Below, piece after piece: positions 11,132 through 15,163 of a stretch of DNA of 24,000 bases; the first letter of the stretch is position 1; the number at the start of each line of letters is the position of its first letter. A model generated the notes under the pieces. The model ran no database searches. It was given only the letters and a program-made list of their open reading frames with translations, and was not told where the DNA came from. The DNA is from an uncultured Clostridia bacterium. GTDB taxonomy: Bacteria > Bacillota > Clostridia > Lachnospirales > Cellulosilyticaceae. The position numbers and the translations under genes are program-made. Where the stretch lies: NCBI GenBank assembly GCA_937981575.1, contig CALJNR010000005.1, positions 1,126 through 25,125 of the forward strand, read 5' to 3'.

Positions 11132-12364
11132 ATGAAAAGAAAAATAATATCCATTACGCAGTTAAACAGCTACGTTGCAAGACTTATGGAAGAAGACTAT
11201 ATGTTAAGTGATTTGTGGGTTTCAGGTGAAATTTCAAACTGCAAATATCATCATTCAGGACATATTTATTTTACCATTAAAGATGAAGCTGCCAGTATTC
11301 AGGCAGTGATGTTTATGCGCGATGCTTCAAAAATTGCTTTCAGGCTGGCAGACGGCATTAAAGTTTATGCCAGAGTCAGAGTGAGTTTGTATGAAAAAAC
11401 AGGAAGTTATCAGGCTTATGTCCAAGACATCGAAAAGCAGGGAAAGGGTCTTTTGTATGAAAGATTTGAACAACTGAAGGCTAAACTTTTAGCAGAGGGA
11501 TTATTTGATGCGCAGTATAAAAAGAAGCTTCCAGCTTTTCCAGAAAGGGTGGGGGTTATTACATCTGCTACAGGGGCAGTTGTGAAAGATATTATTAAAG
11601 TCGCAAGGAGAAGAAATGCAGGCATTCCGCTGTATATTTATCCGGTACATGTTCAAGGGGAATTTGCCGTCAAAGAAATTACAGAGGCTATTGGTAAGGC
11701 CAACAAGGATAAACTTGTTGATGTGCTTATACTTGGACGGGGCGGCGGAACTATTGAAGACCTATGGGCCTTTAATGAGGAAACGGTAGCAAGAGCTGTT
11801 TTTGAATCTAAGATTCCTATTGTTTCAGCAATAGGACATGAAACAGACTTTACCATTGCAGACTTTGTCAGCGATCAAAGAGCGGCCACGCCGTCAGCTG
11901 CAGCAGAAATTGTTATTCCTGACCGCAAAGAACTGGAAGAAACCATCAGGCGTTATAGAAGCACGCTGATCTATATTGCAGAGCAGAATATCAGACAGGC
12001 TAAAGACAGATTGGAGTATTTAACAAGCCGACCGGTTTTTAGAATTAAGGACAAGCTTTATAAAGATAAAATGCAGCAGACTGATTTATTGATGCAGGCA
12101 TTAAATTCAGCTTATAAGCGTATACTAACAAATGTCTTTAATCGTTACGAAATAACAGTAAGCAAACTTCATAAGCTGTCACCTGTTGCAACCCTTAGCA
12201 GAGGCTATAGTTTTGTAACAAACAGCAGTCAAAATGTTGTTAAATCAATTTCAGATATTAAGAAGGATGAAGTGCTTGATATTACAGTAACAGATGGCAG
12301 GGTTAAGGTTCAAGTGCTGGATAAGGAGAGTAAGTATGGCCAAAAAGGTTCAGAAGAGTTTTGA
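11132..12364 (+). CDS. xseA: Exodeoxyribonuclease VII large subunit
   Basis: N-terminal OB-fold region and the catalytic-domain motif GRGGGTIEDLWAFNEE; 410 aa. Confidence 0.95.
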   Translation: MKRKIISITQLNSYVARLMEEDYMLSDLWVSGEISNCKYHHSGHIYFTIKDEAASIQAVMFMRDASKIAFRLADGIKVYARVRVSLYEKTGSYQAYVQDIEKQGKGLLYERFEQLKAKLLAEGLFDAQYKKKLPAFPERVGVITSATGAVVKDIIKVARRRNAGIPLYIYPVHVQGEFAVKEITEAIGKANKDKLVDVLILGRGGGTIEDLWAFNEETVARAVFESKIPIVSAIGHETDFTIADFVSDQRAATPSAAAEIVIPDRKELEETIRRYRSTLIYIAEQNIRQAKDRLEYLTSRPVFRIKDKLYKDKMQQTDLLMQALNSAYKRILTNVFNRYEITVSKLHKLSPVATLSRGYSFVTNSSQNVVKSISDIKKDEVLDITVTDGRVKVQVLDKESKYGQKGSEEF

Positions 12365-12563
12365 AGGAGCAATTGAGGAGCTCGAAAAGATTGTAACGGA
12401 TTTAGAAGAGGGGGATATTTCGCTTGAAGACAGTATCAAAAGCTATAAGCAAGGTATCGATCTTGCAGCTTACTGCCTGTCCATTTTGAAAAAAGCAGAA
12501 CAAGAGATTTATGTTTATGAAGAAGAATCCTACAAAAAAGCAGAAGGAGACGACTGGGAGTGA
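12336..12563 (+). CDS. xseB: Exodeoxyribonuclease VII small subunit
   Basis: ATG 12336 follows AAGGAGAG. The product MAKKVQKSFEGAIEELEKIVTDLEEGDISLEDSI... is a typical XseB. It overlaps the xseA 3' end by 29 nt; the 14 codons upstream in the ORF track are probably not translated. Confidence 0.9.
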   Translation: MAKKVQKSFEGAIEELEKIVTDLEEGDISLEDSIKSYKQGIDLAAYCLSILKKAEQEIYVYEEESYKKAEGDDWE

Positions 12564-13446: not shown

Positions 13447-13896
13447 ATGAATTACATTAAGCAGCTTTCAAACAATCATATTTTATGGGTAGCTATTTTC
13501 AGCTGGTTTATAGCACAATTTTTAAAAGTGATTGTTACGCTCTTTTATGAGCATAAACTCGACTTAAAAAAATTTTTTGCCTCAGGAGGCATGCCAAGTT
13601 CGCATAGTTCGTTTGTTACGGCCCTGGCTATTGGGATAGGACAGGTATATGGATATGATAATGTTTTGTTTGCCATAGCTGCAGTTTTTAGTTTTATTGT
13701 TATGTACGATGCGGCCAACGTAAGACTCCATGCGGGCAAACAAGCAGCTAGAATCAACCAGATTATTGCTGTATTAGAAGATCCTACGCTTAATCCGGAA
13801 GAAAGACTAAAAGAAATATTAGGACATACACCCTTTCAGGTTATGGCTGGAGGGATACTTGGCATACTCATAGCGTTCATTTTTTTTGCAGGGTAA
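13447..13896 (+). CDS. Divergent PAP2-family membrane protein (YuiD-like, acid phosphatase/vanadium haloperoxidase-related)
   Basis: 149-aa polytopic protein with GGMPSSHSS and YDAANVRLHAG motifs, which I recognise as the divergent PAP2 family. RBS AGGGGGA upstream. Confidence 0.8.
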   Translation: MNYIKQLSNNHILWVAIFSWFIAQFLKVIVTLFYEHKLDLKKFFASGGMPSSHSSFVTALAIGIGQVYGYDNVLFAIAAVFSFIVMYDAANVRLHAGKQAARINQIIAVLEDPTLNPEERLKEILGHTPFQVMAGGILGILIAFIFFAG

Positions 13897-13901
13897 TACA
13901 G

Positions 13902-13930
13902 TTGAAAAAGCAAGACTTAACTGCTATAAT
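13902..13930 (+). promoter_or_regulatory. Near-consensus sigma-A promoter with extended -10, driving the large ncRNA and the membrane-protein gene
   Basis: TTGAAA (13902-13907), 17-nt spacer ending in TGc (13922-13924), TATAAT (13925-13930). The predicted TSS is near 13937, a few nt before the RNA's terminal helix. Confidence 0.6.
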
Positions 13931-13936
13931 GTGTTA

Positions 13937-14572
13937 AAAGCGACTTATGACGTGCTTTTCAAAAAGTAAGATGCAGTATTCTAGTCAAGATATTATGTTT
14001 TGAAGACGGGCCTAAAAATCCGTTTTAGGGCATATCGATGAAGTTCCTGGTGTTGGCTTGTAACGCCCCGTTATGGGCTGATACTGGGGGTTAAGGTTTA
14101 AGGGCGATCCATAAGGGCATATGGGCGTTGACCCTTTTACCGTGGAGACCTATGATTGTGCTTATTCCTATGGGAATAATGTATGACTTAGGATTAAACC
14201 TACCATGCGGTATAGGCTGTGGGTAGTGTAGCCTGCCTTGAGTGAAGGCGGGGGGACATCAATTTACTGATAAGTTTTTCGGCCAAAAAACCTGTCGGAT
14301 TGTTGATAGAAACCTGATTCGCAAAAGAGGATAGGAGCATAATATATTGCCCGAGGAAAACTCCTAGACTGTTCAGTTTGAGATAGAATATGGATTACAG
14401 TGTGGCTAAAGGCGATCTGGCGTAGATGATGGTAACACATCTAAAACAGAGTTAAAGGGAAACCGCTCTTTTGGCGACAAAAGGGTCTATGTTTGGGAAA
14501 ACCTGCTAGACTATATACCACAAAATTTACGTATTCTATTGTCTTAATTTTTGAAAAGCGGGTGATAAGTCG
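13937..14572 (+). ncRNA. ole: Large structured noncoding RNA, candidate OLE (ornate, large, extremophilic) RNA
   Basis: The 703-bp gap has no ORF of 60 aa or more on either strand. It has its own promoter and many local hairpins. A 25-nt terminal helix pairs 13941-13965 with 14548-14572. The length (~630 nt) and the ispA-RNA-membrane protein-dxs context match the published OLE locus as I recall it. Not verified against the OLE consensus. Confidence 0.7.
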
Positions 14573-14599
14573 ATCACAAAGGAGTAATGATAAGTCATT

Positions 14600-15163
14600 A
14601 TGCATAAAAGAGTGAAGTTTAAAAAAGTTAAGATAAGAAAACAGTCTATAAGAACTTTAAGTATCATTATTTTGACCACTTTTTTTATTGCAATGATGTT
14701 CAGTTACATTTTCGAAGTACTTTTGGGAGATGTTCCGCTGCTTGCAGCGTTTTTTATGCTGATTGTTATTATACTTATAGGCATATTGTTTGACGGTATT
14801 GGTAATGCAGTTGTTTCAGCAGATGAAACGACCTTTCATTCTATGGCTGCTCAAAAAGTAAAAGGAGCTAAGGAAAGCATTATGCTTATTAGAAATGCAC
14901 CTATGGTTGCGAATTTATTTAATGATGTAATAGGGGATATAGCAGGGATTATATCAGGAAGTACAGCTGCTGCTATTATATTAGCACTTAATCCTAAAAC
15001 AGTACTTTTTTCGATTGTAATGAGCGGGTTTGTTGCAGCACTTACAGTCGGAGGAAAAGCTATAGGCAAAGGATTTGCAATTGAGAGGTCACGCTACATT
15101 GTTTATTATGTAGGAGTTTTTATCTATTACATGAAACGATTATTACGGAAAAATAAAAACTAA
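14600..15163 (+). CDS. oapA: Small polytopic membrane protein, candidate OLE-associated protein A
   Basis: 187 aa with a basic N-terminus (MHKRVKFKKVKIRKQ) and at least four hydrophobic helices. The conserved-looking DxxxD (NDVIGD, D109/D113, nt 14924-14938) lies at the start of a glycine-rich helix. The gene is immediately downstream of the structured RNA and upstream of dxs, as described for oapA. Confidence 0.7.
   Translation: MHKRVKFKKVKIRKQSIRTLSIIILTTFFIAMMFSYIFEVLLGDVPLLAAFFMLIVIILIGILFDGIGNAVVSADETTFHSMAAQKVKGAKESIMLIRNAPMVANLFNDVIGDIAGIISGSTAAAIILALNPKTVLFSIVMSGFVAALTVGGKAIGKGFAIERSRYIVYYVGVFIYYMKRLLRKNKN

Follow-up and report, generated by a model that had tools for sequence, protein, structure and literature searches.

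The OLE (ornate, large, extremophilic) RNA of H. halodurans C-125 is reportedly the experimental model of its class, going by the 2006 work of Puerta-Fernandez. OLE RNAs are among the largest bacterial non-coding RNAs without an established biochemical function, and according to a current proposal they cross the membrane as dimers. In Halalkalibacterium (Bacillus) halodurans C-125, which has served as the experimental model (Wallace 2012, PMC3413148), OLE accumulates as one stable band whose half-life is ~3 h, and its ole-proximal promoter is active by experiment (PMC3413148). It is among the most abundant RNAs in this organism (PMC12265935) and binds OapA, OapB and OapC as a particle (PMC12265935; PMC7936274; PMC9723947). 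Cryo-EM structures are available for the OLE dimers of Clostridium acetobutylicum and C. botulinum (Kretsch 2025, PMC12286853; Wang 2025; reviewed in PMC12265935). Moreover, OLE RNAs have been catalogued in thousands, with 2,822 Bacillota hits in GTDB, and variant OLE RNAs that are missing the variable stems P7 and P8 have also been described (PMC11332333).

In this study, a gene-free gap of 703 bp (13897-14599) in a 24-kb window, meaning the whole stretch of DNA that was analysed, was found to encode a complete and intact OLE RNA of Cellulosilyticaceae-like Clostridia. The OLE model RF01071 matched positions 13952-14561 of the + strand with 466.5 bits (E 3.5e-134; gathering score, 50), and the match covered model positions 1-616 of 616 without truncation. 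No other Rfam family matched anywhere in the window, which ruled out a non-OLE RNA family for the gap. The gap is preceded by a DUF212/divergent-PAP2 gene (13447-13896) and followed by the gene of a 187-aa membrane protein (14600-15163); it contains no ORF of at least 60 aa on either strand, and the remaining same-strand gaps in the window measure about 70-133 bp. The G+C fraction inside the gap peaks at 0.43-0.45, compared with 0.33-0.40 in the flanks, and the region reached a folding energy of -220.5 kcal/mol, compared with -175.9 kcal/mol for shuffles (z = -6.2). The original prediction had named a candidate OLE RNA here and had proposed a search with the OLE model on the + strand, which proved decisive; the accession it gave was correct, and the expected size of ~630 nt agrees with the 632-nt span inside the extended terminal helix (13941-14572). 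Its observations on gap length, lack of ORFs, higher G+C, strong structure, a near-consensus promoter at the start, a long helix joining the two ends, and a context of ispA upstream with oapA and then dxs downstream were likewise borne out. We regard it as nearly certain that the best overall explanation of the gap is an OLE RNA gene of spore-forming, Cellulosilyticaceae-like Clostridia. The copy in the window is a typical member of a known RNA class and not a new element.

The locus closely resembles that of H. halodurans. Both carry a full-length OLE RNA of the same family, a proximal promoter just before P1, oapA immediately downstream, and the same ispA/dxs/xseAB/nusB/tlyA/argR/recN neighbourhood. 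However, the window comes from a Cellulosilyticaceae-like anaerobe of the Clostridia rather than from an alkaliphilic Bacillus, and a DUF212 gene is inserted between ispA and ole. The host thus falls within the anaerobic or extremophilic Bacillota that make up the host range of OLE. The gene order in the window (yqhY-nusB-xseA-xseB-ispA-DUF212-OLE-oapA-dxs-tlyA-nadK-argR-recN) is canonical for OLE: in 69 of 91 other OLE loci the closest gene upstream was ispA, and OapA and dxs were found downstream in 67 and 55, respectively, of 68. The genes oapB, which encodes a ybzG-type KOW/SBB protein, and oapC, a ybxF/L7Ae gene, were both absent from the 24-kb window. For annotation, the 703-bp gap should be labelled as the RNA gene ole, and the ORF of 187 aa, which had no name, as oapA.

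For comparison, 108 other OLE loci were collected and, together with the window copy, aligned as 109 sequences by MAFFT rather than with one whole-OLE covariance model. Across the 109 sequences, the OLE consensus fold was 86.2% paired and its covariation score was 0.452, whereas shuffles scored 0.199 and slid controls 0.09-0.14; none of 500 shuffles reached the observed pairing or covariation values. Changes on both sides were present in 131 of the 158 consensus pairs, whereas the variable P7 and P9 tips and the middle of P3 scored low because they were poorly aligned by MAFFT. A small protein hidden in the gap was also considered and rejected, since there is no ORF of at least 60 aa and the conservation is that of paired RNA with compensatory changes, not of codons. 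In the window copy, all landmarks of the OLE family fold are present by sequence, 143 of 158 consensus pairs are canonical, and the consensus base is kept at 152 of 157 columns conserved to at least 97% and at 198 of 214 columns conserved to at least 90% in the 108 other OLE RNAs.

The 16 departures at these 214 well-conserved columns, which place the window copy at rank 100 of 109 for consensus match among the sampled OLEs, might be read as the mark of a decaying, non-functional OLE held in place by its position in the operon. The full-length match and the intact pairs argue against such decay, and several departures are compensatory, such as those in the P1 core and at 14112/14121 in P6/P6.1, where a consensus C-G pair has become U-A. 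Moreover, the promoter and oapA are intact, and the features are conserved in nine relatives that share 83% mean column identity. A remnant was effectively refuted by the intact pairs, the compensatory changes and this conservation, and we give it hardly any credence; the copy is best taken as an intact OLE RNA.

The consensus fold also allowed the eight hairpins that had been paired by eye in the original prediction to be judged. Three of them are consensus helices, namely P6.1 (14109-14124), P13 (14423-14443) and P14.1 with its GCGA loop (14465-14486), and a fourth (14162-14179) is a plausible lineage-specific tip of the variable P7, although its register differs from that of the model alignment. 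The other four conflict with the covariation-supported fold, in which their nucleotides are assigned to the A-rich loop of P4 (14011-14029), the 3' strand of P8 (14214-14234), the base of P9 (14235-14249) and the stretch just 3' of P9, presumably J9/3 (14332-14366). Pooled with the P7 tip, these four were 60.7% paired across the 109 OLE RNAs, compared with 60.0% for shuffles, and no pair within the four had changed on both sides. They were rejected as real structure because they do not covary across the 109 OLE RNAs.

The internal helices, all on the + strand, were named by inference from the text of PMC12265935. The 5' strands of P2 and P3.1/P3 occupy 13973-13997, with their pairing partners downstream. 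The P2 strand consists of GCAG (13973-76) and UCUAG (13980-84), which holds the palindrome CUAG, and its partner is 14364-14372; the helix is 99% paired in the 109 OLEs, yet invariant. The P3.1/P3 strand consists of CAA (13986-88) and AUAUUAUG (13990-97), with a partner at 14338-14349, and the three inner pairs of P3 covary and show 87.5% pairing, whereas mid-P3 was misaligned by MAFFT. The length of P3 plus P3.1, about 11-12 bp, is shared with the Clostridium OLE RNAs. The P4 hairpin (14005-14024; helix 1, 97.7% paired) carries the conserved A-rich loop CUAAAAAU at 14011-14018. Between P4 and P5 lies the palindrome AUCGAU (14034-14039), which is near-invariant in the 109-sequence alignment. 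Palindromic OapA sites have been placed in or near P2 and P4a (PMC12265935), and we infer from its sequence that the hexamer is the OapA-binding palindrome of the P4a region. The long hairpin P5/P5.1 (14044-14090; helices 2-4, 93-97% paired) ends in the loop GCCCC (14065-69), and P6/P6.1 (14095-14141; helices 5-6) ends in AAGGGC (14114-19). The following stretch (14149-14226; helices 7-11) holds P7 (14149-14192; tip UUAUUCC-UAUG-GGAAUAA at 14162-14179) and P8 (14200-14226), the tips of which align poorly because their lengths vary. The long arch stem P9 (14235-14331; helices 12-20) bears the palindromic loop GGCC (14281-14284).

The 3' domain, or domain 2 (14353-14540; helices 21-29), is 86-100% paired with many compensatory changes. 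It contains a GAG-GAAAA-CUC hairpin (14353-63), a small hairpin (14373-81) and the nested stems 14382-92/14530-40, 14401-05/14518-22 and 14416-21/14505-10, the last of which is P12.2. Within these are P13 (14423-43), P14 (14444-51/14487-94) and P14.1 with a GCGA loop (14465-86). P13 has 6 bp followed by a bulge of one nucleotide, 2 further bp and a loop of the GNRA type, GUAA (UAGAUG-A-UG GUAA CA-CAUCUA).

Three classes of dimer-contact motif that are known from the C. acetobutylicum and C. botulinum OLE RNAs occur in the window copy, where the contacts themselves are putative and read from the sequence. These are the P4 A-rich loop, a dimerisation contact in the cryo-EM structures (PMC12265935); the P5.1 and P6.1 loops, between which a kissing-loop contact is formed (PMC12265935) and whose GCCC (14065-68) and GGGC (14116-19) are complementary in the window; and the self-complementary P9 loop GGCC, a kissing contact in the dimer (PMC12265935). 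The window copy differs from the Clostridium dimers in its P5.1 loop, which is GCCCC instead of the consensus GCCCA.

The sites for OapB are also recognisable. The primary OapB site comprises the P13 GNRA loop, a single-nucleotide bulge and P12.2, and the P14.1 GCGA loop serves as a secondary one (PMC7936274). The window copy has the GNRA tetraloop, the P13 bulge (14423-14443) and the adjoining P12.2, and it shares with H. halodurans the single-nucleotide bulge, the P13 GNRA loop and the P14.1 GCGA loop; its P13 loop is GUAA rather than GUGA, and several internal-loop nucleotides differ. The P13 GNRA loop is missing in 4 close relatives, so OapB dependence may vary within the lineage. OapC recognises an alternative k-turn around P5 (PMC9723947). 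In the window copy, conserved strings flanking the putative k-turn are present as AUCGAUGAAG and as GGGGGUUAAGG, compared with the consensus GGGAGUUAAGG; position 14089, in the region forming the OapC k-turn, carries a G, in contrast to the A of 93% of OLEs.

A lineage-specific feature of the window copy is its long stem P1, whose 5' strand (13941-13972) and 3' strand (14541-14572) form 29 pairs over 32 stacked positions, an extension relative to H. halodurans. The core of the helix (13967-13972/14541-14546) is 95.5% paired across the 109 OLEs, with changes on both sides in 5 of 6 pairs, and the remainder (13941-13966/14547-14572) is a lineage-specific extension that reaches 26-30 pairs in 8 relatives. 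The flank duplex energy is -31.9 kcal/mol in the window, compared with a family median of -8.65, and within the extended P1 a G-G mismatch is invariant and a second mismatch is kept in 8 of 9 sequences. Most likely, the long P1 of this lineage would either stabilise the RNA ends or mark a cut site that frees the RNA from the oapA mRNA. It may further be suggested, more tentatively and with somewhat less than even confidence, that the 29-bp terminal duplex is an element dedicated to maturation and stability. Cleavage specific for double strands, as by RNase III, could release OLE from the oapA-dxs mRNA, or a clamp at the 5' terminus could account for the long life of OLE RNA; if true, either role would provide a handle on OLE maturation. 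In addition, the repeat TGATAAGTC occurs at 14563-71 and 14588-96, and a switch of the P1 5' strand between its two copies was considered and dropped, because the second copy is absent in 8 of 8 relatives.

Upstream of P1 lies a proximal promoter of the sigma-A type (13902-13930, + strand), with -35 TTGAAA (13902-13907), a spacer of 17 nt and an extended -10 TG-n-TATAAT (13922-13930). It matches 11 of 12 consensus positions in addition to the TG, was the top site in a scan of 2 kb and is kept in 8 of 9 close relatives; a TGnTATA element is also aligned ahead of OLE in the consensus of the 109 sequences. From this sequence, transcription is predicted to start near A13936-13938, which leaves 3-5 nt ahead of the terminal helix. 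No terminator was found between OLE and oapA. Most likely, OLE would be expressed from a strong extended -10 promoter of its own, with a transcript that starts a few nucleotides ahead of the 32-position terminal helix and reads through into oapA-dxs, since no terminator separates OLE from oapA.

The absence of a terminator before oapA, a promoter that lies upstream of both the RNA and oapA, and the fact that the RNA always precedes oapA would also suit a cis-acting leader of oapA-dxs, that is, a riboswitch-like or attenuator 5' UTR in place of a stable trans-acting RNA. However, the sequence is a full-length OLE, and OLE in H. halodurans is a highly abundant, single stable band of ~3 h half-life (PMC3413148; PMC12265935) that binds OapA, OapB and OapC as a particle. 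Furthermore, no conserved expression platform, whether a terminator or an RBS-sequestering hairpin, was present, and the 8 relatives show no conservation between OLE and the start of oapA. A leader is accordingly a very improbable reading, and the region more probably encodes a stable, trans-acting OLE RNA.

That partner, oapA (14600-15163, + strand), was assigned by homology and position, and in 111 of 112 loci the gene directly downstream of OLE encodes an OapA homologue (E 1e-24 to 1e-83). The 187-aa protein has a basic N-terminus (MHKRVKFKKVKIRKQSIR) with 10 Lys/Arg in its first 18 residues, and its AlphaFold model (pLDDT 81) contains four long hydrophobic helices (residues 17-44, 47-73, 100-130 and 135-162). 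It had no match in Pfam or NCBIfam at default thresholds; the Pfam match to CNNM was weak and below threshold (E 0.005), and its 3,316 homologues are mostly unnamed. The six best PDB matches of the model were all CNNM/CorB/CorC membrane domains. The predicted structure superposes on the CNNM membrane domain (7m1t, 7m1u, 7cff, 7cfg) with probability 0.99-1.00 and TM-score 0.47-0.59. In contrast to the Mg2+ transporters MpfA, CorB and CorC, OapA is without the CBS-pair and CorC domains. The relationship between OapA and CNNM is a distant structural one that emerged from fold comparison, whereas a profile of 21 OapA sequences found no match among PDB sequences.

The functional picture is transferred by homology from H. 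halodurans and two Clostridium species. The OLE RNA would dimerise, OapA would anchor it to the membrane, and OapB and OapC would be additional partners; the particle would help the cell to withstand alcohol, cold, an excess of Mg2+ and poor carbon sources. Within this picture, the OLE RNA could be the regulatory or sensing subunit of OapA, a protein with the fold of CNNM/MpfA-like divalent-cation transporters, and could stand in for the missing CBS and CorC domains. A transporter-regulator mechanism is a published hypothesis, which we regard as possible rather than probable. Alternatively, OLE might be a ribozyme for a membrane reaction: its size, its complexity and the near-invariance of about 25% of its nucleotides (>97% conserved) are typical of large ribozymes (PMC11332333; PMC12265935), and the window copy keeps 152 of the 157 most conserved positions. 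However, almost 20 years have passed without any reaction being found, and the cryo-EM structures and reviews stress dimer architecture and protein scaffolding (PMC12265935). OLE is also anticorrelated with the all-protein MpfA transporters (PMC11332333; PMC12265935), which suggests functional replacement by a non-catalytic protein. A ribozyme is thus unlikely in our view, and a regulatory role beside OapA is the more probable of the two.

Each correctly annotated OLE copy adds comparative data. The window copy adds little in this respect; it confirms the canonical locus in the Cellulosilyticaceae-like lineage and shows the lineage-specific long P1. Full-length OLE was present in each of the 8 close relatives, at 420-460 bits, and 7 of the 8 were found via the OapA homologue, with OLE likewise in a slot of ~700 bp ahead of oapA. 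Compared with the variant 1 (TANB77) and variant 2 (RF39) OLE RNAs (Fernando and Breaker 2024, PMC11332333), the window copy has the same family core and, being of full length, retains P7, P8, a long P9 and the OapB site in P13. Among the relatives, one (L126) with a truncated P9 and the 4 without the P13 GNRA loop lean toward the variants, and such relatives with an altered OapB site or P9 arch may be natural experiments on which protein contacts are dispensable. The nearest relatives by OapA and OLE belong to Cellulosilyticum and Sporanaerobium (Clostridia, Lachnospirales), and the window itself carries the sporulation genes spoIIIA, spoIVB and spo0A.

The gap between the end of the DUF212/divergent-PAP2 gene (13896) and the start of the next gene (14600) had been put forward in the original prediction as the site of an OLE (ornate, large, extremophilic) RNA, with a search by the Rfam model RF01071 as the check. 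In this study, that search returned a match at 13952-14561 on the forward strand, which covered model positions 1-616 of 616 with 466.5 bits (gathering score 50) and an E value of 3.5e-134; an Rfam 15 scan of the whole window gave no match besides RF01071. When the Rfam structure was projected onto the window, 143 of the 158 consensus pairs were canonical, with most of the exceptions in P7 and P9, which are variable stems. The gap RNA is a typical, full-length representative of an already known and well-catalogued RNA class, of which 2,822 Bacillota hits have been reported (PMC11332333). It is discoverable by any Rfam-based annotation, and its sole non-standard feature is a lineage-specific long P1 stem.

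The general character of the gap, predicted to be free of ORFs, G+C-rich and highly structured behind a near-consensus promoter, was borne out. Neither strand of 13897-14599 contained an ORF of at least 60 aa, and the remaining co-directional gaps of the window measured approximately 70-133 bp. The G+C content was 0.43-0.45 within the gap versus 0.33-0.40 in its surroundings, and the folding energy of the gap region was -220.5 kcal/mol versus -175.9 +/- 7.2 for shuffles (z = -6.2). Moreover, the top site of a 2-kb scan was an extended -10 promoter-like site at 13902-13930 on the forward strand (TTGAAA, 17 nt, TG-n-TATAAT; 11 of 12 positions matching), which was kept in 8 of the 9 related sequences (the window and eight close relatives). 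The predicted transcription start (~13936-13938) falls 3-5 nt ahead of the point where pairing of the extended P1 begins. Work on H. halodurans (PMC3413148) showed that a proximal promoter boosts expression of ole by more than 100-fold, that the 5' ends of ole map where P1 begins and that the half-life of the RNA is about 3 h. In most of 109 aligned loci, a TGnTATAAT-like extended -10 was also aligned 25-40 nt 5' of the conserved GUGGUGCAGU (columns ~125-150; consensus 'TnTGnTATA'), which suggests that ole generally has a proximal promoter throughout Bacillota, beyond H. halodurans alone. Because no terminator-like site was found at 14561-14600, between OLE and oapA, the latter is presumably co-transcribed with the RNA. 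The 9-mer TGATAAGTC is duplicated at this junction, at 14563-14571 (3' strand of the extended P1) and at 14588-14596, between the oapA Shine-Dalgarno (AGGAG, 14580-84) and the ATG at 14600, and the second copy could replace the first in pairing with the 5' strand 13942-48. Within the 15-nt Shine-Dalgarno-to-ATG spacer, 14586-90 and 14595-99 can also pair as a small AAUGA/UCAUU hairpin. The eight relatives conserve neither this hairpin nor the 9-mer repeat.

For the family comparison, the core 20-mer GAGGAAAACTCCTAGACTGT was scanned in one genome per GTDB species and gave at least 120 loci, a sample skewed to sequences carrying that exact 20-mer; among the matches listed, all but one were labelled Bacillota. 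The RNA was complete in 108 of the listed loci, which with the window formed an alignment of 109 sequences. Across this alignment, 86.2% of cells were paired under the Rfam structure and both-sided changes occurred at 131 of 158 pairs, with a covariation score of 0.452 versus 0.199 for column shuffles and 0.09-0.14 for partners slid by 1-3 columns. The window matched the consensus at 152 of 157 columns conserved at 97% or more and at 198 of 214 columns conserved at 90% or more, and its departures were partly compensatory, as in the C-G to U-A change at 14112/14121. The window copy is intact, yet more divergent than the median of the 20-mer sample. Departures at bases conserved at 90% or more were located at 14069 (P5.1 loop GCCCC versus the consensus GCCCA), at 14089 (G for A, adjoining P5/P6 in the k-turn region) and on both opposite strands of an internal loop of the 3' domain (14407-14408 and 14512-14517), and they appear to be common to the close relatives. 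One of the loci, L034 (CABMKH010000005.1, labelled Varibaculum timonense), is an actinomycete-attributed contig with a full OLE core that aligned with Tissierellaceae-type sequences. Its assembly has probably been mis-binned or mislabelled, consistent with the report that the few non-Bacillota hits resemble assembly artefacts or gene transfer (PMC11332333).

The eight hairpins originally paired by eye fared unevenly against the consensus. Three coincided with consensus elements, namely the P6.1 tip (14109-14124), P13 (14423-14443) and P14.1 with its GCGA loop (14465-14486). A fourth (14162-14179), which pairs perfectly over 7 bp around a UAUG loop, is plausible as the P7 tip; P7 is a variable stem, this region varies in length, and the register of the hairpin differs from the model alignment. 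The other four compete with the consensus and were rejected: 14011-14029 uses up the invariant A-rich P4 loop, 14214-14234 the P8 3' strand, 14235-14249 the P9 base and 14332-14366 the stretch just 3' of P9 (presumably the joining region J9/3). None of these four had a pair with both-sided changes across the family and, pooled with the P7 tip, they were 60.7% paired versus 60.0% for shuffles.

The long helix proposed to join the two ends was recovered as P1, a stem described at the OLE termini (PMC3413148); in the structure line of the Rfam model, 53 positions at the beginning and 20 at the end are unpaired. The 6-bp core of P1 (13967-13972 with 14541-14546) was 95.5% paired across the family, with five of six pairs covarying, and its strands are UAAGAU/GUCUUA in the window versus GUGGUG-type/CACCAC-type in most OLEs. 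Inward of P1, a candidate P2 (13973-84 with 14364-72) was 99% paired and invariant, and within P3 (13990-97 with 14338-45) the three innermost base pairs covaried. Beyond the core, P1 ran unbroken by gaps in the window (13941-13972 with 14541-14572, 29 pairs over 32 positions), an unusual length. The 30-nt flanks had a duplex energy of -31.9 kcal/mol for the window and -36.7 for the nearest relative, versus a median of -8.65 for 62 OLE RNAs and a mean of -6.8 for mismatched partners. The eight relatives, seven of them located via an OapA homologue, each carried a full-length OLE (420-460 bits) with a terminal helix of 26-30 pairs. In their alignment, 88% of extended P1 cells were paired versus 39-54% when slid, five pairs had both-sided changes, a G-G mismatch was invariant in nine of nine sequences and a second mismatch occurred in eight of nine. 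The long P1 is a lineage trait.

The window runs aroK, aroQ, pepP, efp, a sulfatase-family gene, spoIIIAA-AH, yqhY (Asp23), nusB, xseA, xseB, ispA, DUF212, OLE, oapA, dxs, tlyA, nadK, argR, recN, spoIVB and spo0A, so the predicted order of ispA upstream and oapA then dxs downstream agrees with the published ole neighbourhood. Among relatives, Cellulosilyticum and Sporanaerobium (Clostridia, Lachnospirales, Cellulosilyticaceae) are the closest. Of 91 other OLE loci, 69 had ispA as the nearest upstream gene and 12 had DUF212; the downstream genes included oapA (67 of 68), tlyA (66) and dxs (55). The window has the less common arrangement, with a DUF212 (divergent PAP2 phosphatase-like) gene at 13447-13896 between ispA and ole; a PAP2-type lipid-phosphate phosphatase in this position may have a functional link with the adjoining isoprenoid genes and the membrane RNP. 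Further upstream, the listed xseB ORF (12294-12563, 89 aa) overlaps xseA (11132-12364) by 71 nt, its Pfam domain begins at residue 23 and the products of relatives have 73-77 aa; the true start probably lies ~40-50 nt further downstream.

The 187-aa ORF after OLE (14600-15163) had no Pfam or NCBIfam match at default cut-offs. A homologue of its product (E 1e-24 to 1e-83) directly follows OLE in 111 of 112 readable loci, which identifies it as oapA, defined as the commonest immediate downstream neighbour of ole (PMC12265935). OapA has a very basic N-terminus, and its model consists of four long helices (pLDDT 81). The best six PDB matches of the model were all membrane domains of CNNM/CorB/CorC Mg2+ transporters (probability 0.99-1.00, TM-score 0.47-0.59), in agreement with a weak Pfam CNNM match (E 0.005) and with the published OapA-MpfA relationship (PMC11332333, PMC12265935); a sequence profile of OapA against the PDB gave no match.

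The published functional motifs are present in the window by sequence: the P4 loop CUAAAAAU, the P5.1 loop GCCC facing the P6.1 loop GGGC, the P9 loop GGCC, the palindromes CUAG and AUCGAU, the GUAA loop and one-nucleotide bulge of P13, and the GCGA loop of P14.1. In published work, OLE RNAs dimerise through the P4, P5.1/P6.1 and P9 loops, and P3 has been proposed to span the membrane (PMC12265935). OLE RNA is also reported to bind OapA, OapB and OapC (PMC12265935, PMC7936274, PMC9723947) and to help cells tolerate alcohol, cold, Mg2+ and poor carbon sources (PMC12265935), and its gene anticorrelates with MpfA-type transporter genes (PMC11332333, PMC12265935). Of the mechanisms considered, we tentatively favour one in which the RNA would act as a regulator or sensor for OapA, with its CNNM-like fold, and so stand in for the CBS and CorC domains that transporters of the MpfA type possess. 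The main alternative, that OLE is a ribozyme, seems unlikely.

Among the close relatives, P13 lacked its GNRA tetraloop, the primary OapB-binding determinant (PMC7936274), in L123, L006, L124 and L125 (columns ~550-585 of the nine-sequence alignment) and kept it in the window, L122, L126, L127 and L128. L126 had a truncated P9 without the GGCC kissing loop (columns ~385-425), and this locus also lacked the proximal promoter and the DUF212 gene. Judged from the aligned sequences, these P13 and P9 differences look like natural variation, inside a single family, in the contacts that the RNA makes with proteins and in the dimer.
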